NCBI GenBank assembly: GCA_022709425.1
Contig: JAKLIW010000003.1
Location: 102,293 to 166,292, forward strand
Origin: a bacterium
GTDB taxonomy: Bacteria > UBP6 > UBA1177 > JAKLFG01
DNA: 64,000 nucleotides
Direction of reading: 5' to 3'
A program made the position numbers and the translations under genes. The notes beneath the pieces are model-generated. The model was not told the DNA's origin, made no database searches, and saw only the letters and a program-made list of their open reading frames with translations. Below are positions 29,001 to 42,759 of this stretch, in pieces. The number at the start of each line of letters is the position of its first letter. The first letter of the stretch is position 1.

Positions 29001-31467
29001 TTTCGATCATGGTGGCCGGAAGAATAGACCAGACTATCTGATTGACTATGTGCCTGGAGCCAGTTCTCAGGCGACACACAACCTAATCATCTCTTCGCGA
29101 TCGAACGATGAGCTGGAGGCAATGCTGAAGCCGGTGCTGCTCGAGCACGGATTGTCCGCCGACGGTGAGCAGTCGGTTCAGATATTGGCAAATCTGCGGT
29201 CGCTTTCCGGCCAGCTTGCCCTGAAGCTGATTTCTGCTCGTACGCAACAGGCGGAAGCACTTGGTTTGGCTTTGGCACGGCTCTATCTCGAATATCAGGG
29301 CGCATTGAGCAACCAAGTAATTGTGCCGTTGGACGCGCATACGGACCTTTACCGCTCAAGCGATGAGTCAAACGACGTCAACGACGCTATAAGCCTTCAA
29401 CGCACTGACTTGGGACTGTTTGACTTAGATTTGAACACTAGGACGATCACTTGCAACCTGATCGAAGTGAAATGCTATTCGCAGGTGGGCAATTTCGCAG
29501 CCTTTAACCAACTGAAGGAACGAATTTCCGCCCAAATCAATCAGAGCGAGCGAATTCTCCAGCGCCACTTCGACCCGGCCCTAAAAAAACCGGACCGGCC
29601 GGATAGGCTGCTCAAGAGCCGAGAGTTTGCGCAGATCCTTCGTTTCTATCTAGAACGCTCTTTGCGCTACGGGATCTTTGATGCGACCGCTGCGCAAGAG
29701 TCGCGAGGATTACTTGAGTCCATCGAGCAAGGCTACTCGCTTCAGTTCAAACGCTGCGCTCTGATCTTTGATTTTGAAAAGGCGGGCACCGATGCTCCGG
29801 ACAACGAAGTGGGCATTGAATTCCACCGCATCGGCAAAGATCTCATTCATGCCTTGCTGGAGAGTTGCCGCAAGTCTGTTTCTGTCGAGACGGAGAAAGA
29901 GCCGACTACACATCTTCTAAGCGAGCAGTTTATCCACAATGTGCCGAAGCTCGAGACAGCGGTCTTTATTGCACCCAAGAGAACCCGGTCAACATCTTGG
30001 ACTTTGGATGAACTCTGGGACGATGAGCCGGAGGTGCCAATCACTCCGCCAGCATCCTCGGCCGCACGGGAAACACCCAAGGTAGCCAAGGAGAAAACAG
30101 AAAAACAGTCGAAACCTTTTGAGCAAGCACCTCGACCTCCCGCAATCGCTTCTGAAGAAGATGGCGAACAACTCGCCTCCGTGGATGCCTTATCAGAAGC
30201 CCCTGCTAAATCCGAACCCGAAATGCAAGAGACTCAGACGTCTAAACCTGTCTCACAAGCAGAGGTCAGCTATGACATTATGCTCGGCGTCAATGGCGGC
30301 TCGCCTCAATACGGATTACTCGGAGAGATTTCCGGCAGAAAAGTCGCGCTGGATCTCAATCACACCCACACGATCAGTTTATTCGGGGTTCAAGGTGGCG
30401 GTAAGAGCTACACCCTTGGAACGGTGATTGAGATGGCATCCATGCCGCTTCAGCACATCAATGTGCTGCCAAGCCCCCTCGCTACGGTCATTTTCCATTA
30501 CAGCCCGACGCAGGATTATGCGCCGGAGTTTACCTCGATGATCCATGCCAACTCAGTGGAAGAGGAAATTCGCATTCTGCGAGAGCATTACAAGGCTATG
30601 CCGAAGGCTCTGAAGGATGTGTTGGTCCTTACCCCGGCGAATAAGGTGAGTGATCGCCGGGCCGAGTACCCAGATATCGAGATTAAGCCGATAGCTTTTT
30701 CTGCCTCCGAGCTTAAAGCGGCTCACTGGAAATTCCTGATGGGTGCGATTGGTAGTCAAAGCATGTATATGCGGCAAATCAATCTCATCATGAGAGGCCT
30801 GAGGGATAACCTAACATTGGATGCTCTGCGAGCAGGTATTGACAACTCAGGTCTGTCCGATCATCTCAAAGAGCTAGCCCAGACGCGCCTTCTTTTCGCC
30901 AGCGAATACATCGACGATAACCAGCGACTTCAAGATCTGATTCGTCCAGGCCGTTTGATCATCGTTGATCTGCGCGATGAATACATTGAGAAAGACGAGG
31001 CCCTGGGTCTGTTTGTGGTGATGTTGCAGATTTTCTCGGAAGCAACCTACCAGGGGAGCGCCTTTAACAAGCTGGTGGTTTTCGATGAAGCCCACAAATA
31101 CATCGAAAACGATGACTTGGTTTCTGGCCTTGTTGAGGTTGTCCGTGAGATGCGACATAAAGGGACCAGTATCATGGTGGCATCTCAGGATCCGCCATCG
31201 GTCCCTGTCTCCCTTATTGAGCTGTCATCGCAAATCATCATGCACAAGTTTAACTCACCTGCCTGGTTAAAACATATTCAGAAGGCAAATGCTGCCCTGG
31301 GAAGACTGTCTTCTGACAAGATGAGCCGCTTGAGCACAGGCGAAGCTTATGTTTGGTCATCAAAATCTTCAGATGAAGCATTCACAAAGGAAGCGATAAG
31401 AATAAAGCTGCGTCCCAGAGTCACTCAGCATGGAGGCGCCACAAAGACTGCCGTAGCCGACAAATGA
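26005..31467 (+). CDS. Giant protein (1820 aa) with an internal PD-(D/E)xK-like motif and a C-terminal HerA/FtsK-like (DUF87-type) P-loop ATPase
   Basis: The C-terminal region has ALDLNHTHTISLFGVQGGGKSYTLG (Walker A in HerA-like context) and LVVFDEAHKYI (Walker B DEAH). Around aa ~1135, LFDLDLNTRTITCNLIEVKCY gives a D...E-V-K core. The N-terminal ~1100 aa is unassigned. Confidence 0.75.
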   Translation: MSNAFIKLSYDKLNAAVACLLCPRIETILGDRGPGHCMRITDLDDDVMESVCKELRRTRPDGNIFILGSHDQESLPFRVTSTKLVELRNPDSNGELRQPLMVFIPTSLRTSAEDSFGVATFEELAFTGIYENLIDSLLDRIPTTLVGPVRDLFGFLTEEEWLFADDVSRVRYLLTALENGIDGETLGASLYELTLIPDFKLFADPGMLRGKIRRNLDSVRSLMISHKSVRGRIAGLGLSDKTLESRLFAYFEKHDVHEPESWTLPIATDKSWWSISFDKWTFRGELYLDKVLLTVLGTDLPVVQKEETDDQLSGLIGQQVLIPNDRRKMNVEFEVNPHPGKVSGLDHFTVQIVSQNDGPVGKSKKVKAWTPNRLQCTTNLAKLNKVEFEEGWHFIRILPWSADGDQIPLEAGSSSEGAKHSYESEPFYVLPGGNIEEEPPQRAIPIEQSLEHARFRLQLTALGDERDPEDIAISSVVWAEGNSSKKVSRHETLLAKFGREGAFQIPLSRMLKTIEQRILAEPKHPSGWRMQINLDTPELPSEVGLTLPSSAAMASFLAAREEFFAAVRKDTAELIMQGLSFRDSEKECLAYAEGYLDLVRNLIRQAETTSGADRQQHLQSLRNVLAVDSIHVVLTDFRGRHREAVLVSPTHPLRALWLSSWVTLGKDWIEKIKSGGKDYIPHVRSALLERLAPSAYPVGIPVEDGRIFTPVDNLNAFWALYAPTTEENSRGLMAEICSALGLAEPSAAGTDVCGKVIADKIERYLSQHPYVRELSLNIFNPGAASVIADALLSLQQKREHADLRYDIRLFTSDPDSPVLGEALESMVRPGATVNEAADAFAISTGSHLFSKLNLAKHALNEFRSNSKEFPAHISVLLDVFPAEEISITEKPMGVTPLHGLIQDFDTDFVDDDTGTFWNKRPIVGRSLAADSHATCFDLLSSLSRNLSFATSAIAASGASFKSVPVITLGLDAVQRELIYEVHQISDWVFTIDRNMGIEFFDHGGRKNRPDYLIDYVPGASSQATHNLIISSRSNDELEAMLKPVLLEHGLSADGEQSVQILANLRSLSGQLALKLISARTQQAEALGLALARLYLEYQGALSNQVIVPLDAHTDLYRSSDESNDVNDAISLQRTDLGLFDLDLNTRTITCNLIEVKCYSQVGNFAAFNQLKERISAQINQSERILQRHFDPALKKPDRPDRLLKSREFAQILRFYLERSLRYGIFDATAAQESRGLLESIEQGYSLQFKRCALIFDFEKAGTDAPDNEVGIEFHRIGKDLIHALLESCRKSVSVETEKEPTTHLLSEQFIHNVPKLETAVFIAPKRTRSTSWTLDELWDDEPEVPITPPASSAARETPKVAKEKTEKQSKPFEQAPRPPAIASEEDGEQLASVDALSEAPAKSEPEMQETQTSKPVSQAEVSYDIMLGVNGGSPQYGLLGEISGRKVALDLNHTHTISLFGVQGGGKSYTLGTVIEMASMPLQHINVLPSPLATVIFHYSPTQDYAPEFTSMIHANSVEEEIRILREHYKAMPKALKDVLVLTPANKVSDRRAEYPDIEIKPIAFSASELKAAHWKFLMGAIGSQSMYMRQINLIMRGLRDNLTLDALRAGIDNSGLSDHLKELAQTRLLFASEYIDDNQRLQDLIRPGRLIIVDLRDEYIEKDEALGLFVVMLQIFSEATYQGSAFNKLVVFDEAHKYIENDDLVSGLVEVVREMRHKGTSIMVASQDPPSVPVSLIELSSQIIMHKFNSPAWLKHIQKANAALGRLSSDKMSRLSTGEAYVWSSKSSDEAFTKEAIRIKLRPRVTQHGGATKTAVADK

Positions 31468-31496
31468 AAACATCGCCATAAAAGAATTCTGAGAAG

Positions 31497-31787
31497 ATGG
31501 ACAAACTGACGACGACGATACAGCGAGATCCGCTCCGAGAAATAGTCGCCGGTCGGAAGCCTGTCGAGTATCGCGACATCAAGCCTTATTGGGACAAACG
31601 CCTTGCCGGCCGGAAGTGTCCCTTCCTGTTGCGGCTCATTAACGGCATGTCGGCGACGGCGCCGGAGGCAACGGTGCGGATAGATCGTATTCGCAAGAAC
31701 ATCCGAACCAACAAGTACGAACTCCATATCGGCAAGGTGGTACAGGTCCTCAACTGGGACCGACGCCGCGAAGAGCCGACGGCCTGA
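31497..31787 (+). CDS. ASCH-domain (PUA-like fold) protein
   Basis: 96 aa. LREIVAGRKPVEYRDIKPYW matches the ASCH GxKxxExR signature. It lies 30 nt downstream of the giant gene. Confidence 0.6.
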   Translation: MDKLTTTIQRDPLREIVAGRKPVEYRDIKPYWDKRLAGRKCPFLLRLINGMSATAPEATVRIDRIRKNIRTNKYELHIGKVVQVLNWDRRREEPTA

Positions 31788-31797
31788 CGGCAGGTCT

Positions 31798-31998
31798 ATG
31801 AAAAAGAAAGTCGTGGAGAATCATCCGGTTCCGGCGCCGCGTTATAACCTTACTGAGTGCGCCGAACTCCTTGACCGCCCCGAGAATCCGTTCTTCATGT
31901 TCGGCATCGACGCCTGCCGTTTCCAGACATGGGAGAACTACCGCGACGGGCTCCTGACCCGCGAAAATGCTATTGAGCGCCTTTTCCAAGATCAATGA
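31798..31998 (+). CDS. Hypothetical small protein (66 aa)
   Basis: ORF 10 nt after the ASCH gene stop. No motif was recognised. Confidence 0.35.
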   Translation: MKKKVVENHPVPAPRYNLTECAELLDRPENPFFMFGIDACRFQTWENYRDGLLTRENAIERLFQDQ

Positions 31999-32044
31999 CA
32001 AATCTCAACCAGACCAATGACAATTTACCCCTTATTCATAACAG

Positions 32045-32110
32045 TCACCCTTGGATAATTCGGTGAAACTGGCCACCTGTTTCGGGCAAACTGGCCACCC
32101 CTTGGAAGAG
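32045..32110 (+). repeat. Solo IS21-family terminal-repeat-like end (tggataattcggtgaaactggccacc...gggcaaactggccacccc)
   Basis: Read on the plus strand, it closely matches the reverse complement of the multi-repeat terminus of the IS21 element at 41636-41705 (tggaaaattcggtccaaactgaccggcc...). No transposase gene is adjacent. Confidence 0.55.
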
Positions 32111-32185
32111 GTCAGCTGGACAGCAAATCCAGTATGTCTTTCAATTCATCAGAGTCAACATTTTTGATTTCGGGCACCAATCTTC

Positions 32186-33829
32186 TTACCGTTTCTCCCC
32201 GTTAGGGCGGGTTCCGGCCTTCACATCCTTTGGATTGTCTGGTTGAGGTGTGTAATCGTCGAATGGACAAAGTTCCGGGTGCCGGTCGCAGTAACATTCC
32301 ATGTCGCGGGCTTTCATATAGGGAGCACTACTATCCTGCCAAACAACCCAATGGTTCTCAAATTCGGTATAGGATTGACGATATTCCAGTACCCCATCTT
32401 TATGCGGTGTCGGTAAAGAGCAGTAGCTTTTCTTTAGATCGAGTCTAAAAAAACATGCTCGGATATCCCAGTCATCTTTCTCGGTATTGGTGTAGAAATT
32501 GTTGTTATAAATTAAAAGAACACCCTTGGCGCTGACGGGGTACACACTCATTAAGGGATCTATCAGTTCCTCCATTTTCAAGTATTCATACTGTATCGGT
32601 GTTTTGCTTAGATCGACGCGAAGAAGAGAATCTCTCGTCTTATAAGCATCGGCGTAATAAAGGATATCTTCATTCGTTGAGTCGAGTACAAGATTAAGGG
32701 CGCCTTCTCCTTCGCGATTAACTACCCGACATTCGTCAAGAGAAAGCGGCTTCTTGTCGAGGTCGCAAATATAACCTTTAAAGTTATTGGCATGAAATAC
32801 CAACCGATTGTTCACAATGCTGGGCTCATTTGCTACGCCGTCTCCCAAACCGATCCATTTCCATTCGCCGATCTTGGCGTACATCATCTTTGTGGAGAGC
32901 GCATCCGATTCTTTTATATTGGCAAAAGCCCACGTCTCATTGATCACCGGATTATACACTGTTTGTCGGATCTTTTTGGGATAAGCGACTTGCCATGAAG
33001 AATTGTTCGAGTAGAGCAGATATTCCATTTTATCGTCACGGCCCGATTTTACATTGCTGAGCTTTGCGCCTTTGTAATAGGTCAGTACATCGATACCGGG
33101 ATCCATTGCAGAATACTTCCGTGTATTCAAGTCGAATTCAAAGTTTTTGGTCCATACCTGAGGATAGTTTTGCCAAGCCGAATCGACGTGTGACATCACG
33201 AACCCAACTTTACCTAGGCTCAGGTTGAAGTGTTTGAAGGTTCGAATGGCCATTTGCCATCCTTTGGGGTTGTTGGGGTTCAACATCATGTCGCATTCGT
33301 CGAGATAATACCCCTCCCTCTCATCTTTGTAAAAAGGCGTCAGTTTTCCCATCGTGCAGGGATAGCCGCAACAATCGTAATCGGGCATCGCAGTACAGAG
33401 CGCGCAGTTTTGTTCCTTCCACAAATTGCGAACGCACTGAGGGTCGCTCTTCCATACCTTGTCGCACTTCCGGCAGAAGTGTATCTTGCTGTCGGTGTCA
33501 TAGTAAGGAAACGCTACTTGGGAGAGGTCTGGGCACTCTTCGTTCCCGGTGTGGGTGTTGGTTATGTACTCGATCCCTTCGGGATCGGCAAGGCACGAGC
33601 CTCCTATTACATCTTTATCTGACTGTGCATTGTCCATTTCAACAAATTCCTCGTCGTCGGACAAGGTATCGTCTGTTTGGTCAGCTTGAACTATAATATC
33701 AACATCAGTAACGGTGTCTATCTCTTTGATTTGTTTATTTTTTTCACAGGCACAAGCAGAGAATAAGAAGAATGCTGAAATGCTTAGGATGCGGCAATAA
33801 ACCAGCTTCTTGGTTGTCTGCTGTTTCAT
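32186..33829 (-). CDS. Secreted lipoprotein (547 aa) with an acidic linker and a Cys-rich domain, lower GC
   Basis: Lipobox signal MKQQTTKKLVYCRILSISAFFLFSAC. The D/E-rich stretch DDTLSDDEEFVEMDNAQSDKD. Many conserved Cys. Its start is 2 nt after the stop of the upstream giant gene. Confidence 0.6.
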   Translation of the reverse strand: MKQQTTKKLVYCRILSISAFFLFSACACEKNKQIKEIDTVTDVDIIVQADQTDDTLSDDEEFVEMDNAQSDKDVIGGSCLADPEGIEYITNTHTGNEECPDLSQVAFPYYDTDSKIHFCRKCDKVWKSDPQCVRNLWKEQNCALCTAMPDYDCCGYPCTMGKLTPFYKDEREGYYLDECDMMLNPNNPKGWQMAIRTFKHFNLSLGKVGFVMSHVDSAWQNYPQVWTKNFEFDLNTRKYSAMDPGIDVLTYYKGAKLSNVKSGRDDKMEYLLYSNNSSWQVAYPKKIRQTVYNPVINETWAFANIKESDALSTKMMYAKIGEWKWIGLGDGVANEPSIVNNRLVFHANNFKGYICDLDKKPLSLDECRVVNREGEGALNLVLDSTNEDILYYADAYKTRDSLLRVDLSKTPIQYEYLKMEELIDPLMSVYPVSAKGVLLIYNNNFYTNTEKDDWDIRACFFRLDLKKSYCSLPTPHKDGVLEYRQSYTEFENHWVVWQDSSAPYMKARDMECYCDRHPELCPFDDYTPQPDNPKDVKAGTRPNGEKR

Positions 33830-33830
33830 T

Positions 33831-36800
33831 TTAACACCCGCTGTCGTAGCAGTCGCCGTTATCCCAAGCGGTACAGGTGCTATTACAGATTGCCGAACCG
33901 CTGTCCCATTGTGTCGGATCGACCATCGCGCAATCTTCGCTGTTCCCGTCGCAGAACTCGCCCGGTTCGATGATGCCGTTGCCGCAGATAGCGGGAACGG
34001 TGTTATTCGTCGAAAGCTTTACCTTGTTCCCGTCAGGGATGTAGACCCAACCGTTGTACAGGTAGTTCTCCTGCATTTCGCGCATGTCGCCATCCAACTC
34101 AGTGTAGTCGATGTAGGTATTCGGCAGACCGGCGAAGCGATACTCATACCCGTCACAGGAGAGGTAGAACGCGCCGTGGTCGGTCGTCAGCTCTCCGGTC
34201 GAGCAGTACGGATAGTCCCACGCCTTCCGTGTTGCAAGGTTATCGACATCGCGGATATCGATGCCCGATGACCAGAAGTCGTCCCAGTACATCGCGATCT
34301 CGCCGTTCGTAATGGCGAAGTCCATGGTACTGCCGATGTTGACATAGGCTACGCGGGCAAAGTTTTCGGGGTTGCGGATGTTAATGCCGTTGTCGTCGCC
34401 GACATAGAGATTGCCGTTATAGAGTTGGATGCGGTACTGGTAGTTGTACGGCGTGCTGTAGAAGGAACCGATGATCGAAAGGGTGTCGGGATTGACGGTA
34501 TTGAGTTTGTAGATGCCGCCGCTGGTCGCCGCGTACATGATATCGCCGTCGGCCACTTCGAGGTCGTAGACGGTCTTGTTGGTGGTAAAGGTGCTCTTGA
34601 GAACCATCGCGTTCGGGTCGCTGATGTCGTAAACCTTGATTGCACTGCCGGTACCGACATAGAGGCGATCCCCCTTGCCTGCTACGCTGTAAACGGTCGA
34701 GCCGATCGAGTACTGCTTGTACCACGGGTGGGTGAATGGGGTGCAGATATTTCCGATAAAGGTACCCCCTTCAAGAATATCATCATTGTCATTCAAGCAA
34801 TAACTTGGTGGCGCGGTAATCTTTTGCTTAATGGTTATAGTTCTCTCAGCAAGAACGTCGCTTGCTCTATCAATCGTCAGCATGGATGTCGTTGTTTCCT
34901 CAGATTGTGGTTGGGTAATGAATTTAATCGTTTCGTCATCAATGATGGTAAATGTTTTATAAAGATCTATTTGCAGATTCTCTGCCAGCTGCTCAAGCCC
35001 ACCACTGGGAGAATAACGCCAGACATCGTTGATTGGCGTCGGGATTCCATTGTACAGATTGAAGCCTCCTAGCAGATAGATAACCCCATCGGGAGTTGTT
35101 GATATGTTGACAAAATTGCGAGGCAATGGCTTGGCGACCATGGGAATAACGTCAAATGTTGTAGTGGCAGAGTTGAATCTATGAAGTGTCAGCCCATCAA
35201 GCTCATGAGTCAAGGTATATAGTTTCGTGCCAGCTGCTATCAAATGGATAGCTCCGCTTACCTCTGGTAAAGTTCCAACATGGGTTAAAACATGGGTATA
35301 AGTTGTGGGCATTGTGAATTGCAGAGCCGATGAATCGCGTTGCTGTACGGAATAAAGGCTAGCGCCAATAGACACATAGAGCCTATCGTTTAATATCGCT
35401 CCACTCATTAGGTGTGCGCTTGCTGGGAGTGCAAAGGATCCGGCATATGCGGTGTCGCTGGGGCGAGCATCATTCTGGTACCGCAGTTCGACATATCTTT
35501 CATCTTCATGTTCGTAAAAAAGAATTGTCTCTCCAGCATATTGCAGGCCAAACTTTAGATTGGTTTGAGGAATGATTCTCTGGTTTTTTTCCAATTCTTG
35601 CGTGATACTGTTATACCGCCATAGGTCGAAACGGTCATCAGCATAAGGATATCCAGGTGTTGCCTCAGGCATAGTGTAGGTGATTTCAAAAGGAAGGCGA
35701 GGGGGAACGATAAAAACCTGATCGGGCGCGTAACTCATTCCTATCGCATAGGAAAGGGGCGTGCCGGAGAAGCTGTCTCGTGTTGAACGGGCAAAGATTC
35801 TGTCGTTCTTGAAGCAGGCGCTATTTTGTGTTTTGCCACCTTCGCCATCATCTACGAGGTCGTTGGCTTCTGTGCATTTCACGGTACCTTGAGGACCACC
35901 CGAAACGGCATAAGTGATAAAGGGATCGAGCGAAGGGTTATAAGTTGGCTCCTCATTAGCGACATGTTCTTCATATAAATCCAAGTATTCTCCTTCTAAG
36001 TCTGGTTTCCAGTCCCAAAGATGCGTTTGGTCCGGAGATTCTTCGTAGATTCCCTTTTGGCTTACGATATTATTTCCGGTAGGTACTTGCCATGATGGAT
36101 CAGTCCCCTGTCTGAGTGGCATAGGGTCGCTTCCGTGACTGTACGCGAAATCGCTAGAAAAGAGGAAGTGAATTGAAGATTCGTTGCTCGTTGTGCAGTA
36201 ACCGCCAGTACCCCAACGATTGCTATAATCACTTTGAGGCACCCAACAATAGCGAAGAATACTGGGATGCGCTATACTGTTGTAGACTGGCGCTCCTTGA
36301 GATATGACTCCTGAGTCATGATCTATTGCGACAAGACTGTTTATTTCACGAGATTGTACCTGACCACCATAAACGATTTCGTTCTTTGGAGAGCCATTAA
36401 CAAAACGAGAAGAAATAACAGTATGATGCCATCCGTCTCCCACAAGATTGTCAGGGCCTATCCCTTTGGGAGTATCACAGGCATCTCCGGTACCGTCCAA
36501 ATCATGATCGGGCTGCCATGTCCATTTTGAGAAAGATAAAAAAAGGTTAGGAGATGTTTTCAGATAACCGTATTTGAAAGTCTTTTTGTTGTATCGTGCT
36601 CCGCCCTCGTTTTCATTGGTACAGTGGGGCAGGGAAAGATCTCCATTTTGAAAGTAAGAAACTCCTGTTCTACATTCCCCCTGAATAAGTTCACTGTTCC
36701 AATCTTCAGCTTCCACAAAGGGGTTCCCCTTTTGTGGACAATTATCGCAGATGTCAGCGATACCATCGGTATCCGAGTCGGCAATGGGAGTTCCAAACTG

Positions 36801-38900
36801 ATCTATCCAATTACTGATGGCATACAGAGTAGGGCAAGGATCGACACAGTTCGGAACACCGTCGTTGTCGGCATCTCCAGAACTACCGCCCATCGGACAT
36901 GGATCACATTCATCAAGTATTCCGTCATTATCAAGGTCGCTGTATTCATAATAAGGAATGTTCTCTTCCACGTCATATCTATGTGGGCATAGGTCGCAGA
37001 CATTGCCCGCACCATCAAGATCATAGTCTTCCTGTGTAGAATTGTAGGTAGAGGGACAATTATCTATTAGGTCGGGCACTCCATCGTAGTCAGTGTCAAT
37101 GCTAACCGCCACCTCGGTATTCCAATCGAAGGTAAGCCTTCCCGTAGCAAGGTCGGCCGAACTTATCAGCCCTATATGCACCTTCTCCATCATCCAATAC
37201 TCCGATAACCTTTGACCCCGTGGCGCATTAATGCATCCGTTGACAGGATTATCTTTATCGCAATTACCGTAGGGACGGAATGAGAAAATGTATCGCGTAG
37301 TTGGATCCAATGTCGGAGACGGAAGCAACAGATATGTATCCTTGCCTTGATCTCTATCGCCATGACTATTGCGAATGATGTAGTAAATATCTTGGAAACC
37401 GTCACCGTTGGTGTCGCCTCCGCGTAGATAACCAACGATGTCAACGATGTGTCCTCTTATTCCAAAGTTATAGATTTGTGGTTGCCCCTGATTGTCGAAA
37501 TCCAAAGCCTCTGGATCAAGATTCCACGAACAGTCTTCCATTTTGTCGATGTTAGGCTTATCAAGACATGCCCCAATGTTTTGACCCGTTTCAGGCACAA
37601 TTTTGTAGTGTGCTTTATCTTGTGCGTGAATAAGCCTAAAATGAATATTGAGATCTTCTATTGATTGCGGCACCGTATTGTCGTGACGCAAATGCTCATT
37701 CCATGGCATCGGAATAATTACAACTCGGCCTCGGTTTATGGTCGTCATTATCTTTCTGTCCACCTCATACCAGTTTACCTGAAGCCTATCGAGAACCCAC
37801 TCGCCATTCGCATCTTTGTGATAGCCGCCGAAGGCTTCGCCTTGATCACCCATAGGATTTCCTCCCCACGGGCAAGCGGCCACACATAATGGGTGTTCGA
37901 GATCAAGATCACATGTAAACCCTTGCGGACAACTTCCGTTGTTGACGCACAATTTTCTCGGATTGTTTTTATCAACACAGTTCGGCCAAATATGGGCCAT
38001 GTACTGTTCGCTGATTTGCATTTCAGCCTTGTAGGCAGGGTAGAATCCCACTATGGGGTATGGAGCTTCCCATGCCGTTTTCACCATACAGGAGGAAGCT
38101 AAATCGTAATATAAGTTGAAATAACAATTCTCATTTGCACAATCGGAAAGATTGCCCGTACATGCAAAATACAGTTCGCTTTCGAAGGCTCCAAGCGATT
38201 GACACTCAGGGATACTTTGATATTTTTCAGCATAATGAGTAGCAGCAAACCCCAGTCGATTCCGCAACTCTTCCAAATAGGCCGTGGGACTATCTTCGCA
38301 TTCTGAAATTTCTGAGAATCCGGATTCTTTCTTCTTTCCTGGAAAGAAAGCATATGGAAATATTCTTTCCGGCAGAGACTTGTGCATTTCTCCTCCGCCC
38401 AAATAATCTTGAGTGTAATAACTTGCTTCTGAAAGATTGGTCGTGATGGGGCGACTCTGATCTTGTCCAATGTGCCGGAAAAGATTGTCGGGGAAACGTT
38501 GATACAACTCAATAGCCAGTAGCGATTCGAGGGAAGCATTTTCGCCGAAATCCCAGCATAGGCCAAAATCTTGTTGATTCCTCACCGGACCAAGAAAATT
38601 TTCGGGGCAGTGAAGAAGCGAGACCATCGCGTACTCACTCCCATTGAGCGACACCTGTAGGGGGAAAAGATCACATTGCTCTGTCACTGTGAGATCGTAG
38701 GGTGTTCGCTGTGGCACGGCGATATCGAACGAGTGTTGTAGGAGGTAAAGATTTTGCAATTCGGGAGACAGAAGAGGAATGGTCTCTTCCCCGTACACAT
38801 GAGTCACGAAGAAGAATATTATCAAGAAAAATCCCTTGGGTATTTTCCTTCCCAAAAGCAAATTGCCAATTCGACCCATGATACGATTAGAACTCTTCAT
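33831..38900 (-). CDS. Giant secreted protein (1689 aa) with thrombospondin type-3-like Ca-binding repeats and beta-propeller (LVIVD-like) repeats
   Basis: Signal peptide. Repeated DxDxDGxxDxxDNCP blocks (DTDYDGVPDLIDNCP, DLDNDGILDECDPCP, DADNDGVPNCVDPCP, DSDTDGIADICDNCP). Propeller-like repeats toward the C-terminus. GC is about 45%, against more than 60% for the flanks. Confidence 0.7.
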   Translation of the reverse strand: MKSSNRIMGRIGNLLLGRKIPKGFFLIIFFFVTHVYGEETIPLLSPELQNLYLLQHSFDIAVPQRTPYDLTVTEQCDLFPLQVSLNGSEYAMVSLLHCPENFLGPVRNQQDFGLCWDFGENASLESLLAIELYQRFPDNLFRHIGQDQSRPITTNLSEASYYTQDYLGGGEMHKSLPERIFPYAFFPGKKKESGFSEISECEDSPTAYLEELRNRLGFAATHYAEKYQSIPECQSLGAFESELYFACTGNLSDCANENCYFNLYYDLASSCMVKTAWEAPYPIVGFYPAYKAEMQISEQYMAHIWPNCVDKNNPRKLCVNNGSCPQGFTCDLDLEHPLCVAACPWGGNPMGDQGEAFGGYHKDANGEWVLDRLQVNWYEVDRKIMTTINRGRVVIIPMPWNEHLRHDNTVPQSIEDLNIHFRLIHAQDKAHYKIVPETGQNIGACLDKPNIDKMEDCSWNLDPEALDFDNQGQPQIYNFGIRGHIVDIVGYLRGGDTNGDGFQDIYYIIRNSHGDRDQGKDTYLLLPSPTLDPTTRYIFSFRPYGNCDKDNPVNGCINAPRGQRLSEYWMMEKVHIGLISSADLATGRLTFDWNTEVAVSIDTDYDGVPDLIDNCPSTYNSTQEDYDLDGAGNVCDLCPHRYDVEENIPYYEYSDLDNDGILDECDPCPMGGSSGDADNDGVPNCVDPCPTLYAISNWIDQFGTPIADSDTDGIADICDNCPQKGNPFVEAEDWNSELIQGECRTGVSYFQNGDLSLPHCTNENEGGARYNKKTFKYGYLKTSPNLFLSFSKWTWQPDHDLDGTGDACDTPKGIGPDNLVGDGWHHTVISSRFVNGSPKNEIVYGGQVQSREINSLVAIDHDSGVISQGAPVYNSIAHPSILRYCWVPQSDYSNRWGTGGYCTTSNESSIHFLFSSDFAYSHGSDPMPLRQGTDPSWQVPTGNNIVSQKGIYEESPDQTHLWDWKPDLEGEYLDLYEEHVANEEPTYNPSLDPFITYAVSGGPQGTVKCTEANDLVDDGEGGKTQNSACFKNDRIFARSTRDSFSGTPLSYAIGMSYAPDQVFIVPPRLPFEITYTMPEATPGYPYADDRFDLWRYNSITQELEKNQRIIPQTNLKFGLQYAGETILFYEHEDERYVELRYQNDARPSDTAYAGSFALPASAHLMSGAILNDRLYVSIGASLYSVQQRDSSALQFTMPTTYTHVLTHVGTLPEVSGAIHLIAAGTKLYTLTHELDGLTLHRFNSATTTFDVIPMVAKPLPRNFVNISTTPDGVIYLLGGFNLYNGIPTPINDVWRYSPSGGLEQLAENLQIDLYKTFTIIDDETIKFITQPQSEETTTSMLTIDRASDVLAERTITIKQKITAPPSYCLNDNDDILEGGTFIGNICTPFTHPWYKQYSIGSTVYSVAGKGDRLYVGTGSAIKVYDISDPNAMVLKSTFTTNKTVYDLEVADGDIMYAATSGGIYKLNTVNPDTLSIIGSFYSTPYNYQYRIQLYNGNLYVGDDNGINIRNPENFARVAYVNIGSTMDFAITNGEIAMYWDDFWSSGIDIRDVDNLATRKAWDYPYCSTGELTTDHGAFYLSCDGYEYRFAGLPNTYIDYTELDGDMREMQENYLYNGWVYIPDGNKVKLSTNNTVPAICGNGIIEPGEFCDGNSEDCAMVDPTQWDSGSAICNSTCTAWDNGDCYDSGC

Positions 38901-39266
38901 GAAGGCTCCCTCTTATTTGGGTAAGAAATACATCGCAAATTACTTTTTTCATCTATTGGGTAAGACCCCTCGCTTGGCGATTGAAGAAACAAAGCCGCAA
39001 TCAAAAACTCCCGTTCCTTGCCCTTTGAGATACCAAAAAACCCATGAAGGATTCAGGGTTTTCCAATATATTTTGTATCCTTCCGTTTTTATTTGGCTAT
39101 ATCTTTCTCTGACTGAGAGTCTGATCTCGCCTTGCTTCGGCAAGAAGACTTGCCCCCGCATCAACCCCATGCAGATACCTTCCGGCTTTTGACTAATTAC
39201 TCCCATATTAGGGATGGTTCCGCAGAAGAAATCAAGTTTTCCGTGAGAGAGGATATTACCGGTTCC

Positions 39267-40028
39267 TCACTTCTTCCCGATGGCCTTCTTCTTGCGCATA
39301 GACTCGCCCTTGATCTCGATGCGGTGAGCCGAATGGACCAGACGGTCGAGGATGGCGTCGGCGATGGTGTGGTCGCCGATCACATCGTGCCACTCCTTGA
39401 CCGGCAGTTGCGAGGTGATGATGGTGGCTTGTTTGCCGTGGCGGTCCTCGAGAAGATCAAGAAGGATCAGGCGTGCCTCACCATCGAGCGGTTGAAGACC
39501 AAAGTCATCGAGAATGAGGAGCTGCTGCTTGGCGATACGGGCGATGGCGCGGGGATAGGAGTTGTCGGCTTTCGACATCTTGAGATCGGCAAGGAGCCGG
39601 TTGGTGTTGGCGTAGAGTACCCGGTACTGCTTGAGGCAGGCATGGTGACCGATCGCCGAGGCGACATAGCTCTTGCCGGCGCCGGTCGCCCCGGTGACGA
39701 TGATGTTCTCGGCCTGATCGATGAATGTGCAGGCGGCCAGACGGGCCAATTGGGTCTTGTCGATGTTGCGGGCGGCCGAGAAGTCGAGTTCGGCCACCAA
39801 TGCCTGATACCGGAACTTCGCCTGCTTGATACGGCGGGCCTGTGTCTTCTGCTGCCGGTACAGCCACTCGGCCTCCACCAACATGTTCACGATCTCGTCG
39901 TTGGTGTAGCGGGCCCGGGTCTCCTGCGCGGTGTTCCATGCGTCGCGCATGCCGAACAGCTTGAGTTCGTTCATCTTAGCGATGGTGGTGCTCATCTGGT
40001 GCCTCCTAGCGGTAATCGTTTCGTACAT
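39267..40028 (-). CDS. istB: IS21-family helper ATPase IstB
   Basis: 253 aa. Walker A NIIVTGATGAGKSY. DnaA/IstB-like AAA. Overlaps the istA stop. Confidence 0.9.
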   Translation of the reverse strand: MYETITARRHQMSTTIAKMNELKLFGMRDAWNTAQETRARYTNDEIVNMLVEAEWLYRQQKTQARRIKQAKFRYQALVAELDFSAARNIDKTQLARLAACTFIDQAENIIVTGATGAGKSYVASAIGHHACLKQYRVLYANTNRLLADLKMSKADNSYPRAIARIAKQQLLILDDFGLQPLDGEARLILLDLLEDRHGKQATIITSQLPVKEWHDVIGDHTIADAILDRLVHSAHRIEIKGESMRKKKAIGKK

Positions 40029-41541
40029 TATGGTGCAACGGCAAGGCGTACTGTGTCGGGGCGGGCGTCAGGCGGTCGAGGTCTTTTTTCAGGATTGACT
40101 CGATGCTGTGGTAGCTGTAGTTGTCGAAGAGGGCGGCCCGCTTGCAGGCATTGTTGAGTCGGTACGGGCCGTACCGGTTCTCCTTGGCCAGAGCGAGAAT
40201 GCCCAAACAGGCGCGAAACGCGATGTGGGGATGCGGTCTGCTCGCTATCAGCGCCTTGAGGTATGCCGCCGTTTCGGGACCGATGGTCGCACCCTTGGCG
40301 ACGATGCGTTCCTCGCTCCATTCGGTGAGTTCGGGTTGGTGTTTCGGCGGGAGGTGGGCCGGGATCAGTTGGTACCGTTCCCCGGTGCGGACATGGTAGG
40401 CGATGCGACGATTGTTGTGGATGACCTCAAGGTGTCGGGCGCTGTAGACGACCTCCACGGTCTTGCCGATATAGGGATAGGGAACGCTGTAAAAGTTCAG
40501 GTCTTCGCTTGCCTGTATGAAACAGAACTTGCTCACCTTCTTCGTCTCGTAGCGCTTCGGTTCATAGCGGTCTATCGGGAGCGGCCTCAGAGTTTCCTTC
40601 TCTCCCGTCTCGAAGAGGTCGCGTCTACTCTCGCTCCTGTTGGTCAGCGGCGCGTCGTTCAGGGCGTCAACGAGTTCTCTGATGCGCCGGTTAAGGGTCT
40701 CAAGGTCGAAGAAGGTCTCATTCCTGAGTAGAGCGTAGACATTCCGGTAGACGATCTTCACCATGTTCTCGACATGGGCTTTGTCCTTGGGAGCGGCGGT
40801 TCTCGTCGGATGCGCCGAGGTGCCGTAGTGGGTACAGAAGTCCTCGAAGGTGCGGTTCAATTCTGGTTCGTACCGGTGCGCCTTGGTGACGGCGCTTTTC
40901 ATGTTGTCGGGTACGATGAGGGAGGGGACCCCGCCCAGGTACTCGAGGGCGTTCTCCAAGCCGTAAAGAAAATGGGCCGTCTTCTGGCTCTGGACCGCCT
41001 CCGCGTAGCCGAGGCCGCTGTAGGGAAGAACGGCGACCAGTACCTCGGCTTCCCATATCTCGCCCGTGTCGCGGTCGACCAGCGGCAGTTTGCCGCCCGC
41101 GAAGTCCACGAACAGCTTGTCGCCCGCCTTGTGCCGGAGGTAAACCGAGCTTTCCATCTGCCGCAGGGCGCGTTTCAGGTGGGCACAGAACTGGGTGTAG
41201 GCGTACCCATCGGCATGGCGTTCCCGGTACTCCACCCACAGGCGTTTCTTGTCCACGCCACGCTTGCCGAGTTCCTTTTCCATGTAGGGGATCTCTTCCA
41301 TGAGCGTCTTGAAGCGTTCCGGTTCCGCCGGACCTTTATAGAAAAGCTCCTCGAGGTCCTCATCGCTGAGTTCGAGCACCTCGGCAAGGGGGAGTTCGCT
41401 CCTGAGGAAGGCTTGGTAGTAGTTGCCGACCGTCGTCTTGCTGACATCAAGTATCCTCGCCACGCTTCGGTCGCTCCGGCCTTCCTCCAATCTCAGTTTC
41501 AGCAGTTTGCGTACTTTCATGCGGTCCTTCCTCCGGTTCAT
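40006..41541 (-). CDS. istA: IS21-family transposase IstA (HTH + DDE)
   Basis: 511 aa. N-terminal HTH (RSVARILDVSKTTVGNYY). Integrase-core region. Typical IstA length and organisation. Confidence 0.9.
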   Translation of the reverse strand: MNRRKDRMKVRKLLKLRLEEGRSDRSVARILDVSKTTVGNYYQAFLRSELPLAEVLELSDEDLEELFYKGPAEPERFKTLMEEIPYMEKELGKRGVDKKRLWVEYRERHADGYAYTQFCAHLKRALRQMESSVYLRHKAGDKLFVDFAGGKLPLVDRDTGEIWEAEVLVAVLPYSGLGYAEAVQSQKTAHFLYGLENALEYLGGVPSLIVPDNMKSAVTKAHRYEPELNRTFEDFCTHYGTSAHPTRTAAPKDKAHVENMVKIVYRNVYALLRNETFFDLETLNRRIRELVDALNDAPLTNRSESRRDLFETGEKETLRPLPIDRYEPKRYETKKVSKFCFIQASEDLNFYSVPYPYIGKTVEVVYSARHLEVIHNNRRIAYHVRTGERYQLIPAHLPPKHQPELTEWSEERIVAKGATIGPETAAYLKALIASRPHPHIAFRACLGILALAKENRYGPYRLNNACKRAALFDNYSYHSIESILKKDLDRLTPAPTQYALPLHHNVRNDYR

Positions 41542-41704
41542 GCATTCCTCCGCCGTTGTTAAAAAGGCGGCGGAAGTCTAGTCCGTTTTTCTTCCTGCGC
41601 TATTTATGCTGTCTGGCTGACCCCTCAGAAGAGGGTGGCCACTTTGACCGAATTACCCGGCCAGTTTGCTCCGAATTGGCCGGTCAGTTTGGACCGAATT
41701 TTCC

Positions 41705-41788
41705 ATGGGGCCTCGGTTCGGGGATGGGGATCTCTTTCAGTTGCAGGACCTCGGGCGGTCCGTATTCGGTGTAGACGACGGCTTTCAT
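41705..41788 (-). pseudogene. 5' fragment (28 codons) of a zinc-type quinone oxidoreductase/MDR-family gene truncated by the IS21 insertion
   Basis: The reverse complement reads RBS GGAG, then ATG AAA GCC GTC GTC TAC ACC GAA TAC GGA CCG CCC GAG GTC CTG CAA CTG AAA GAG... (MKAVVYTEYGPPEVLQLKE), running straight into the IS terminus. Confidence 0.6.
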
Positions 41789-41799
41789 GCGCTCACTCC
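41744..41799 (+). repeat. Repeat A copy 1 (~55 bp: RBS plus the first ~15 codons of the oxidoreductase-like gene)
   Basis: aggacctcgggcggtccgtattcggtgtagacgacggctttcatgcgctcactcc recurs almost identically at 42986-43041. Confidence 0.7.
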
Positions 41800-41869
41800 T
41801 TTGCGGCATAGTTCACACTCGGTCTACCATGGCGGTCGCGCCGGGTGAAGTCAAGAGAAATCGGGCTGG

Positions 41870-41967
41870 CGCATCACCGCGTCTTTCTCACCAAAGGCCA
41901 GTACCGCAAGTTGGAGAAGAAGGGAAATGAAAAGTTGTGTTAATATAGATGTGACCCCGTTTGGCCC
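41870..41967 (+). repeat. Repeat B copy 1 (~95 bp: gcgcatcaccgcgtcttTctcaccaaaggccagtaccgcaagttggagaagaag...tagatgtgaccccgtttggccc)
   Basis: Three copies in the window (41870, 42887, 44153). All have an identical ~50-bp core and a conserved 3' tagatgtgacccc box. Each lies downstream of a minus-strand accessory gene. Confidence 0.75.
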
Positions 41968-41997
41968 TCTACATCCCCAAAGGGCTGACCAGCGTAT

Positions 41998-42759
41998 TCA
42001 TATGTGTTTTCTAGCCCTTACCCAAAGGAATCCTTCTTGGCCGAGCGTATAAGACAAGTTTCCGGTGAGGAAAGGTAGGTATATGTTTTCCGGAGGCCCC
42101 TTCACGGCTACCCGATACGACACTATATCCAGCATATTCAGCAAATTGTTTTTGATGATTTCCTCATTCAATTGCTGAGGTTCACAAGATGTGGCCGGTT
42201 CTTCCAAATTAAAACTACCGATAAACTCTCCCCCCGGTTTCAGAACTCGAACGATTTCATGGCACATGGCGGCGAAATTATCGACATGGTCTATCGCATT
42301 CAAGGTGAACATCACATCAACAGAGTCCGATGGCAGAGGAATAACTTTCTCTGTGGATTTCAAGTAGATCATGCCGTGAGAAATGATGTTGTCCGTGAAC
42401 TCATCGGCATATCTGTCCGCAAGCACATCAATCCCGATCCGCAGAGATGCCTGCTCCGCCCAAACAAGGCTTCCGCGTGGGCCGCAACCGAAATCAGCAA
42501 CGATCTTTCCTTTGAGAAAATCGTCCGTGGATTCCCCTGCTATCGCAAGCATCAATTCCTTATAGTGGGCGTTACGAAACTTGCCTTTGTCGATTTCCAA
42601 TCTGCTTCTCCAAAAGGACAATTCGGCCGCATCCTTTGTAATAAACAACAATTCGACACCATGTCTTCTGGCCATGGCGACGAGGCTCCTTCGTGCCGGG
42701 TGATAGAGCCGTTTCAAGAATTTCGGAGAGATGCGCTTCAGAATATCTCGTAGCGACAT
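41998..42759 (-). CDS. Class I SAM-dependent methyltransferase (Methyltransf_11-like)
   Basis: 253 aa. Motif I IVADFGCGPRGSLV. Post-I acidic residue. LKPGGEFIGSFN. Confidence 0.7.
   Translation of the reverse strand: MSLRDILKRISPKFLKRLYHPARRSLVAMARRHGVELLFITKDAAELSFWRSRLEIDKGKFRNAHYKELMLAIAGESTDDFLKGKIVADFGCGPRGSLVWAEQASLRIGIDVLADRYADEFTDNIISHGMIYLKSTEKVIPLPSDSVDVMFTLNAIDHVDNFAAMCHEIVRVLKPGGEFIGSFNLEEPATSCEPQQLNEEIIKNNLLNMLDIVSYRVAVKGPPENIYLPFLTGNLSYTLGQEGFLWVRARKHI

Follow-up and report, generated by a model that had tools for sequence, protein, structure and literature searches.

A very probable cargo-carrying member of the IS21 family with a secreted-protein and lipoprotein gene pair in uncultured digester bacteria

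Canonical IS21 elements measure ~2-2.6 kb and are not known to have genes beyond istAB. In the window, i.e., the whole 64-kb stretch of DNA analysed here, an istA/istB pair shares a single pair of inward-facing ends with two further genes, which raises the question of whether the entire segment moves as a unit or whether an IS merely lies beside ordinary genes. The preliminary description of this locus had seen inverted ends bracketing a ~9.7-kb unit, and this layout was recovered, except that one limit given there as 32045 had to be moved to the actual tip at 32052. The element thus delimited spans 32052..41705 and consists, in this order, of a left terminal inverted repeat (IRL), istA, istB, a leader, a 1689-aa gene, a 547-aa gene and a right terminal inverted repeat (IRR), with all four ORFs on the minus strand. 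At 9,654 bp, and with two genes in addition to istA/istB, it departs from the compact IS (~2-2.6 kb, istA/istB only). It is very probably an IS21-family copy that has turned into a cargo-carrying unit transposon, or 'transporter IS': exact boundaries, target-site duplications (TSDs), varied cargo and the existence of cargo-less relatives point to a family of IS21-derived cargo transposons rather than to a solo end or a composite transposon. All data, those on the window included, derive from metagenome assemblies, in which repeats are error-prone.

The two transposition genes have intact ORFs and catalytic motifs. The istA gene (40006..41541) encodes a 511-aa IS21-family DDE transposase, recognized with NCBIfam NF033546 (254.7 bits, cutoff 160) and Pfam, in which an N-terminal HTH is joined to an rve core and a Mu-transposase-C-like barrel; its catalytic residues D146/D212/E258 fall opposite D124/D187/E233 of the IS5376 IstA in the alignment to 8q4d/8b4h (PMC10122671). 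The istB ORF (39267..40028), which overlaps the end of istA, encodes a 253-aa AAA+ helper ATPase (NCBIfam NF038214, 249.9 bits, cutoff 200; Pfam IstB_IS21, E = 1.8e-67) whose Walker A (GATGAGKS, residues 113-120) and Walker B (LLILDD, 170-175) motifs are both preserved. Exact-sequence look-ups with the window IstA and IstB gave no match, probably owing to start-codon or allele differences, and PLSDB plasmids encode no IstA closer than 43% identity.

Both termini carry the signature expected from IS21 and IS5376, whose ends have a terminal CA and at least two repeats each, at a spacing of ~23 bp (PMC10122671). IRL (41607..41705, minus strand) starts with the tip 5'-TGGAAAATTCGG at 41705 and holds the three sub-repeats, corresponding to IstA sites, that had been reported for the left terminus (41682-41698, 41659-41675 and 41637-41652; 23 bp spacing), while IRR (32052..32125, plus strand) starts with 5'-TGGATAATTCGG at 32052, reading inward, and holds two (32059-32074 and 32081-32096; 22 bp spacing). 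Past the sub-repeats, the two ends have an inner motif in common, GGTCAGCCAGACAGCA at 41607-41622 in IRL and GGTCAGCTGGACAGCA in IRR. The tip pattern TGGANAATTCGG(N2-3)AAACTGNCC has two matches in the 64-kb window, facing inward at 32052-32074 (+) and 41682-41705 (-), and none in 100 shuffled sequences; the sub-repeat TTCGG(N2-3)AAASTGRCC occurs only five times (32059 and 32081 on the plus strand; 41637, 41659 and 41682 on the minus strand), versus 0.01 expected. In a repeat search, the two sites additionally pair with each other as inverted repeats of 17 nt (88%), 25 nt (88%) and 35 nt (80%). TGGA.../...TCCA tips and multiple direct repeats 22-23 bp apart are thus present, as in the IS21 family. 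With one istAB, one IRL and one IRR in the 64 kb, and no internal IRR or IRL, the composite structure also considered in the preliminary description is ruled out, because it would need more than the single istAB and single pair of ends found here.

Between istB and IRR lie 7.2 kb in the window element and 8 to >11 kb in sister elements. The cargo stands out by its GC content (0.47, versus 0.59 for istAB and 0.55 for the remaining window), which bears out the low GC noted earlier for 'two giant' secreted-protein genes, of which only one is in fact giant. This first cargo gene (33831..38900, minus strand) encodes a 1689-aa secreted multidomain protein, as judged by signal peptide and domain searches, which runs from a putative papain-like head at the N-terminus through thrombospondin type-3 Ca-binding repeats (~residues 600-730) and a Kelch/beta-propeller region to a Cys-rich C-terminus. 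The head is a weak match in the window protein (cathepsin H, E = 0.14), but its homologue in the sister elements of type B has a Peptidase_C1 head above the Pfam threshold, and that of the distant element L002 a Peptidase_C25 head plus propeptide; overall identity is 39% and 40%, respectively, and the C-terminal 300 aa share 83% nucleotide identity with another distant element, L003. The second cargo gene (32186..33829, minus strand) encodes a 547-aa lipoprotein, identified by its lipobox (...LFSAC), which is followed by a disordered acidic linker, a Cys-rich domain and a beta-propeller. Its family counts at least 152 uncharacterised proteins from uncultured bacteria. Its AlphaFold2 model (pLDDT 86, pTM 0.83) retrieves only generic beta-propellers in fold searches (TolB, prolyl oligopeptidase, WD40), and comparison with Pfam, NCBIfam and PDB sequences gave no match, so that no function is assigned from sequence.

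The limits of the element were read from other assemblies, which the preliminary description had named as the place to look for the same unit in different contexts. Three contigs (L021, L022 and L023) are 100% identical to 41401..32052 and end this identity exactly at 32052, beyond which two of them (L021 and L022) continue into a different flank (EamA, ProRS); identity to L024-L028 breaks at the same nucleotide, and in L024 homology runs exactly from 41705 to 32052. In addition, contig L001 begins exactly at the IRL tip (41705), L029, from an independent assembly, confirms the junction between flank and IRL, and L030, which bears the flank, terminates at 32051. A tip scan of the metagenomes found four left and six right flanks in total, and IRRs of the window-element type always after cargo, never after istB. 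At least six cargo variants have the same ends. The flanks of the other contigs are absent from elsewhere in the 64-kb window, which excludes an inversion within it.

Target-site duplications in the IS21 family are short and of fixed length (4-8 bp; 5 bp in IS5376), and 5-bp duplications were found in sister copies. In Ga0302237_1000202 and Ga0302247_1000221, IRL, istAB and IRR, >10.1 kb in all, have CGGGG on both sides, and this element sits in a single 63-kb contig. A transporter IS or unit transposon is defined by passenger genes inside one pair of ends, duplications outside it and several genomic contexts, and all three were observed here, the duplications in sister copies. The exact boundaries, differing flanks, 5-bp duplications and at least six cargo variants bear out the option of an extended IS21 derivative with two cargo genes, raised earlier for this locus.

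A second duplication came to light at an alcohol dehydrogenase (ADH) gene. Outside the IRL tip, positions 41706..41788 (minus strand) hold the start, 27 codons long, of a Zn-dependent alcohol dehydrogenase/quinone reductase gene that the insertion has interrupted, and the last 5 nt of this flank, CCCCA, are one copy of a target duplication. When the window stub is joined to the right flank of the B-type element, minus one CCCCA, an in-frame 338-aa ADH results. It aligns collinearly and without gaps to an intact ortholog (91% aa) in a sister genome, where the syntenic HydF/HydE/HydG locus has an empty site. Since the partner of its left flank is the right flank of a sister element, the window copy lacks a duplication of its own; the proposed check at 32045/41705 accordingly found none (the left flank ends ...GGCCCCA, the right one starts AGGGTGA...). 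None was found in L024 either, and the other flanks are unpaired (left, J_L2 GTAGG and J_L3 TTGAT, versus right, AGGGT, CTAAG, TTCCA and CCTCC).

Judged by its flanks, the window copy is therefore a hybrid, whose left side goes with the right flank of a B-type sister, and this pairing stems either from recombination of copies or from a mis-join within an identical istAB core. It is quite possible, though not the likelier case, that the family is real and the window copy an assembly chimera, entered via the left end of the B-type copy at the ADH site and left via an A-type copy, which would then be the one beside the defence island. Besides the pairing by duplication and reading frame, this would account for the relationship with L024, which has 100% identity with the window from 41309 to 39660 (1.65 kb of istAB) but departs from it by 4-5% to the left and by up to ~15% to the right; the B-type contig L025, covering window positions 40286 to 39154, differs from the window within that very core. 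L024 is a mosaic across the 100% identical istAB core, and the window copy probably is one as well, so that left flank and window cargo may not be linked in one genome. Breaks in short-read assemblies also fall at 41275/41401, the IRR tip and 32051. On the other hand, the picture would be no different if two copies had undergone homologous recombination in a real genome, and L029, bearing the left flank, and L021, bearing the A-type cargo, are identical across a 127-nt overlap.

The copies could also be fossils, with istAB and ends conserved by recent common descent and the various contexts produced by chromosomal rearrangement. The lack of an IRR in L002 fits this scenario, which is nonetheless improbable: A-type copies from four assemblies share 9.35 kb at 100% identity, yet occur in two right-flank contexts, ORFs and catalytic motifs are intact, the 5-bp duplications are clean and the site in the sister genome is empty. 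The element is probably still able to transpose and would thereby move a secreted-protein gene and its lipoprotein partner among the genomes of uncultured digester bacteria.

Comparison with relatives suggests how the cargo was acquired. L074 (2577 bp) and L076 (2530 bp) are ordinary, cargo-less IS21 elements with an IstA 73% identical to that of the window and a homologous IRR 41-86 nt after istB; the window IRR is homologous to theirs over ~100 nt, and the IRRs of elements with near-identical istAB are conserved for ~75 nt before diverging. Elements whose IstA and IstB are 92-99% and 95-99% identical, respectively, have cargo lipoproteins that are only 26-63% identical. Even in the distant L002 and L003 (IstA, 71% and 66%), the gene pair directly follows istB; L002 has no detectable IRR, its cargo abutting a convergent gene, and L003 has none within 11.7 kb, so that some copies may be immobilised or longer. 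Two short segments frame the cargo. Directly 3' of the istB stop, a conserved ~113-nt segment (39154..39266, minus strand), defined by alignment of elements A, B and L002, is common to these cargo-bearing elements and absent from the cargo-less relatives; in blastn, the B-type element and L002 remain homologous as far as 39154/39162. It may serve as promoter or 5' leader of the cargo operon; consensus promoter and terminator scans gave chance-level counts and nothing in this leader, and an Rfam search of 31500-42500 returned no RNA family. At the other side, between the cargo stop codon and IRR, every cargo element has a ~25-nt segment (32142..32165, minus strand, in the window) resembling the last istB codons, as seen by comparison with L074/L076; it is most readily recognised in elements of types B and C and has decayed further in the window copy. 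In that comparison, this remnant is a marker of the cargo position relative to the cargo-less relatives.

The remnant is also what would be expected if 32052 were the solo right end of a second IS, most of which had been deleted, the two genes being ordinary chromosomal ones and nothing moving as a unit. The missing duplication in the window copy and the occurrence of the gene pair without any istAB in L031-L036 and L063 can be read in the same way. The scar of a single deletion in one genome cannot explain, however, why at least six cargo alleles, in different flanks, are arranged in the order IRL-istAB-cargo-IRR, why inter-contig identity breaks exactly at both tips, or why 5-bp duplications bracket whole elements. 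As an account of the present window content, the solo end offered in the preliminary description is thus very unlikely and was rejected; a history of this kind may nonetheless echo the origin of the family, which, given the istB-like remnant beside IRR, may have started as IS-cargo-IS or a similar rearrangement. Least credible of all is a cryptic functional right end at ~39150-39260, bounding an IS of ~2.5 kb to which the cargo is merely adjacent (e.g., through insertion preference upstream of such genes), since, although the leader is conserved among cargo-bearing elements and cargo-less relatives have their IRR at that position, neither the regular-expression and sub-repeat scans, even with two substitutions allowed, nor Smith-Waterman alignment of leader and IRRs, no better than shuffles, revealed an IRR-like site there, as the preliminary description had itself failed to see a good terminus beside istB, while homology between elements of different cargo and flanks returns at the distal IRR and stops at its tip, and target duplications lie outside the cargo.

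For the IS21-derived cargo transposon, a plausible course of events can be proposed. The family would have arisen from an ordinary 2.5-kb IS21 by placement of cargo between the 3' end of istB and IRR, after which the cargo module would have been exchanged or have strongly diverged, while the transposition backbone stayed nearly constant. During transposition, IstA would bind the 22-23-bp-spaced repeats, at three sites in IRL and two in IRR, synapse the two ends over a distance of 9.65 kb and cleave at the terminal CA; the AAA+ protein IstB would select and bend the target, and the whole segment would be inserted with a 5-bp target duplication, so that the leader and the secreted-protein/lipoprotein operon travel between istB and IRR. 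A bolder and rather doubtful proposal casts the IS21 backbone as a shuttle devoted to a hypervariable cassette of secreted protein and lipoprotein, swapped with chromosomal paralogues, the leader and the IRR-proximal segment acting as recombination anchors. If true, a near-invariant transposon would spread and reshuffle surface or extracellular enzyme repertoires among uncultured anaerobes, both between strains and between species, as a cassette-exchange platform built on an IS instead of an integron.

IS21 has been treated as a minimal two-gene IS and as a structural model for ATPase-assisted transposition; the elements described here suggest that 7 to >11 kb of cargo can be carried with these ends and this two-protein engine. 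A near-invariant backbone combined with divergent alleles of secreted proteins (with protease-like heads) and lipoproteins points to a route for spreading and diversifying extracellular enzyme and surface-protein repertoires in uncultured digester bacteria. On the practical side, pipelines for IS annotation that assume ~2.5 kb will mis-call such cargo elements as partial IS, and identical istAB cores are points at which metagenome assemblies break or mis-join, the window being probably an example.

Like IS21, IS5376 and IS408, the window element has istA (DDE) followed by istB (AAA+) between 5'-TG...CA-3' termini, and it shares with the IS21 family direct repeats ~23 bp apart, more numerous at the left than at the right end; a 5-bp duplication is seen in its sister copies. 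In contrast to canonical members, which are ~2-2.6 kb long and hold istAB only (PMC10122671), it has 7.2 kb between istB and IRR. A literature search for IS21-family elements with passenger genes found none. Transporter IS (tIS), i.e., IS with passenger genes, have been described in several other IS families (PMC3129680, PMC7986276) and likewise combine one IS transposition module and one pair of ends around genes unrelated to transposition; in the surveyed literature, the passenger genes of a tIS are small and number one or a few, whereas the cargo here has 3-5 times the length of the IS and forms a conserved two-gene module that differs strongly between near-identical elements. As in composite transposons, cargo would be mobilised by IS ends, but these rely on two IS copies and the window element on one istAB and one pair of ends. 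A DDE transposase working with an AAA+ protein is also the engine of Mu (A/B), Tn7 (TnsB/TnsC), Tn5053/Tn402 (TniA/TniB) and Tn552, with which the window family shares multi-repeat asymmetric ends, 5-bp duplications and large cargo, and IstA is structurally close to MuA and TnsB (PMC10122671). Mu/Tn7/Tn5053-type elements have different end sequences and extra targeting or resolution proteins (TnsD/E, TniQ, resolvase), whereas the window element has only IstA and IstB, both passing IS21 equivalog models; a cargo-bearing family of this kind would narrow the gap between IS21 and Mu, Tn7 and Tn5053.

A complete copy of an IS21-derived cargo transposon very probably occupies 32052-41705 of the window. 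Read on the minus strand, the element opens with the left terminal repeat (IRL), whose tip, 5'-TGGAAAATTCGG, lies at 41705 and which contains three sub-repeats of the AATTCGGnnnAAACTGnCC type down to 41637; istA (41541..40006) and istB (40028..39267) follow and, after a gap of 366 nt, ORFs of 1689 aa (38900..33831) and 547 aa (33829..32186). The right repeat (IRR) starts at 32052 on the plus strand and points inward, with the tip 5'-TGGATAATTCGGTGAAACTGGCCACC-TG-TTTCGGGCAAACTGGCCACC. The tip pattern occurs exactly twice in the 64 kb and never in 100 shuffles, and the sub-repeat pattern has exactly five occurrences versus 0.01 expected, three of them in the IRL (23 bp apart) and two in the IRR (22 bp apart). 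These counts confirm the inverted IS21-type termini that the preliminary description had seen around the cargo and istAB, with the right tip at 32052 rather than at 32045. A repeat search additionally found inverted matches of 17, 25, and 35 nt (80-88%) between the ends, which have in common GGTCAGC(C/T)(A/G)GACAGCA, internal to the sub-repeats. GC content falls from 0.59 in istAB to 0.47 in the cargo, the rest of the window having 0.55.

A cryptic right end beside istB, raised earlier as an option, did not hold up. With two substitutions allowed, the only sub-repeat-like sites in the whole element (about 9,655 nt) are the five terminal ones, and 39154-39266, the ~113-nt leader 3' of the istB stop that alignment shows to be kept in other cargo-bearing elements, aligns with IRRs no better than shuffled sequence does. 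The leader carries TTGATT...(19 nt)...TAATAT-like hexamers, conserved in elements with the window's cargo type (A-type), in B-type sister elements with other cargo (L024-L028), and in a more distant relative, L002, and it may be the cargo promoter; a consensus scan with 16-18-nt spacers did not detect the hexamer pair.

The suggested check for the unit in different contexts was positive in other assemblies, identity stopping exactly at the tips, with four left and six right flank contexts in all. Relatives came from a genome scan with IstA, and further junctions from searching metagenome contigs with the tip pattern. Among the former, the L001 contig (93% identity) starts exactly at the IRL tip, and L002 (71%) and L003 (66%) have homologues of both cargo genes directly 3' of istB. 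Contigs that encode an identical 547-aa protein show 100% identity to the window starting at 41401 and stopping exactly at 32052. Beyond this tip, L021 and L022 run on into a different flank, with EamA, a metallo-beta-lactamase-fold protein, and ProRS; L023 goes no further than the tip, and L030, which has the window's own right flank, ends at 32051. The B-type elements encode a cargo lipoprotein of 556 aa, 63% identical to that of the window. In L024, the only full B-type copy, similarity to the window begins exactly at 41705 and holds to 39154 (97% nt); it resumes at ~70% identity in the lipoprotein gene and stops exactly at 32052, a single base differing between B-type and window in the final 59 nt. 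The tip scan added two left flanks (L048; L051/L053), three right flanks (L054/L069; L061; L066), and a contig starting at the IRR tip (L068); at its junctions, the IRR of this element type is preceded by cargo genes in every case and never by istB.

Three assemblies (L037 1600-1682, L041, and L046) contain an IRR-like sequence (TGGATAATTCGGTGAAACTGACCACTCGTTTCGGCCAAACTGGCCACT...) with one common flank, and beside it, in place of istB or the cargo pair, lies a radical-SAM gene; either a solo end or an element with different cargo could account for it. Another, ordinary IS21 relative (IstA ~39-41% identical; L040, L042, L043, L049, L059, L060, L062, L064, L065, L070, and L073) agrees with the window element in the outermost 12 nt of the tip (TGGAAAATTCGG) and is found with many different flanks in one metagenome set (Ga02478xx). 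Directly outside the right end of the window copy, PADLOC places a methylation-associated defence system (MADS, 14686-31998), with matches to mad2 (two copies), mad5, mad6 (NERD plus kinase, 1384 aa), mad7, and mad8, the latter to the C-terminus of a 1820-aa protein; two small ORFs (96 and 66 aa) follow, and the IRR starts 53 nt beyond this island.

Target duplications, expected at the element ends, were found for sister copies but not for the window copy. The C-type element, another sister with its own cargo (Ga0302237_1000202 and Ga0302247_1000221; at least 10,168 bp), has a left flank ending in ...CAGCCGGGG and a right flank starting with CGGGGAGG..., i.e., a 5-bp duplication, CGGGG, with both copies in a single 63-kb contig. 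The window's left flank (41706-41788, minus strand) is the start of a Zn-dependent alcohol dehydrogenase (ADH)/quinone reductase gene, cut after codon 27 and ending in ...CCCCA, and the B-type right flank, which begins CCCCACGAGG..., encodes the remainder of this gene (L024-L028). Joining the two with one CCCCA removed restores an uninterrupted 338-aa protein that aligns with a paralogue from residue 1; the frame breaks if CCCCA is kept twice. An intact ortholog (91% aa), placed within the conserved HydF/HydE/HydG neighbourhood of a sister genome (L078), is collinear with the reconstructed gene, ungapped and 90% identical over 130 nt, and the junction between the ADH stub and the IRL is independently confirmed by L029. 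The window's own two flanks (...GGCCCCA and AGGGTGA...) have no duplication in common.

Judged by this ADH evidence, the window's left flank belongs with B-type cargo, though its cargo is A-type. L024 and the window are 100% identical between 41309 and 39660; on the left of this core L024 diverges by 4-5%, and on the right by up to ~15%. L025, which is the one further B-type contig reaching the core (from 40286), differs from the window there. L024 is thus a mosaic built around 1.65 kb of identical istAB sequence, and so, presumably, is the window copy. Its linkage of left flank and cargo could be that of a real recombinant, generated between copies in vivo. Alternatively, assemblers walking through the repeat may have mis-joined the two, a tentative reading to which we give somewhat less than even weight and with which the breaks of short-read assemblies at 41275/41401, at the IRR tip, and at 32051 agree. 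Either way the nature of the element stands; only the linkage within the window is in doubt.

As for its origin, most IstA relatives at 40-51% identity in a protein search lie on contigs of ~2-3 kb, often ~2.6 kb, as long as an ordinary IS21. In a closer clade (73% identity), two members are complete cargo-less copies, L074 (2,577 bp, five left repeats) and L076 (2,530 bp), with the IRR 41-86 nt 3' of the istB stop. For ~100 nt, their istB end and IRR align with the sequence next to the IRR in the cargo elements, which there keep a ~25-nt remnant resembling the last istB codons. This IRR homology and istB remnant place the cargo and leader between the istB 3' end and the IRR of an ancestral 2.5-kb IS. 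Capture may have occurred by insertion, or through an IS-cargo-IS arrangement followed by deletions.

The 1689-aa protein has a signal peptide, a Kelch-like region, thrombospondin type-3 repeats (E = 1.6e-14 in Pfam, with COMP and thrombospondin-2 as PDB matches), and a Cys-rich C-terminus. The N-terminal heads of its homologues differ between sister elements: Peptidase_C1 in B-type (24.6 bits versus 20.7), Peptidase_C25 with its propeptide in L002, and a weak cathepsin-H-like match in the window protein. The 547-aa lipoprotein received no family assignment; an AlphaFold2 model (pLDDT 86) predicts a Cys-rich domain and a beta-propeller, with generic structural neighbours only. The large B-type gene is intact in L028 (1712 aa); in the four other assemblies with this flank (L024-L027), gene calls give 842-870 aa and small fragments, reflecting either pseudogenisation in some strains or assembly/frameshift errors.

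Elements whose IstA and IstB are 92-99% identical carry lipoproteins only 26-63% identical. Cargo pairs also occur without istAB (L031-L036 and L063), with three tandem paralogues in one 2.95-Mb genome, and the lipoprotein of the free chromosomal copy L063 is 63% identical to that of C-type. Cargo GC is consistently lower than that of istAB, and than that of the flanks where measured (window, B, C, and L003), and free copies reside in genomes of 35-39% GC. Two elements, L066 (at least 13.6 kb) and L003, harbor two cargo pairs. Cargo variation, free copies, GC contrast, and double pairs together fit a cargo module that may have been exchanged repeatedly on a stable backbone. Of note, the free, IRR-less pair of L063 (121-6018) lies 2.9 kb upstream of another element's IRL (8890), an ADH paralogue and a DUF4395 gene lying between them. 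Over its final ~300 codons (33835-34754), the window's 1689-aa gene matches L003 19045-19958 (83% nt, about 85-90% aa), versus ~30-40% identity for the remainder of the protein, the L003 element being much more distant, and L061 is 91% identical (aa) over the last 86 residues; such a mosaic gene suggests that recombination may occur within cargo genes.

Both transposition proteins pass the NCBIfam equivalog cutoffs for IS21, IstA as transposase (254.7 bits versus 160) and IstB as helper ATPase (249.9 versus 200), and Walker A and Walker B of IstB are intact; the best plasmid IstA in PLSDB is 43% identical. Transposition of the IS21 type is expected to pass through circle or tandem intermediates, recognisable as abutted IRR-IRL junctions (...CCGAATTATCCA-N(2-5)-TGGARAATTCGG...). 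D146/D212/E258 of the window IstA align with the catalytic D124/D187/E233 of IS5376 IstA (solved structure 8q4d/8b4h; PMC10122671). IS21-family ends carry a terminal CA and several direct repeats spaced by 23 bp (L1/L2, R1/R2); IstA needs two repeats per end, and insertions generate 5-bp duplications (PMC10122671). The window ends match this description. Proteins, gene order, and end structure are all those of the IS21 family, with the 5-bp duplication present at the level of the element's family. The searchable literature yielded no IS21-family member described as carrying passenger genes. The window element departs from the compact two-gene IS and instead agrees with the transporter-IS or unit-transposon concept (PMC3129680, PMC7986276).
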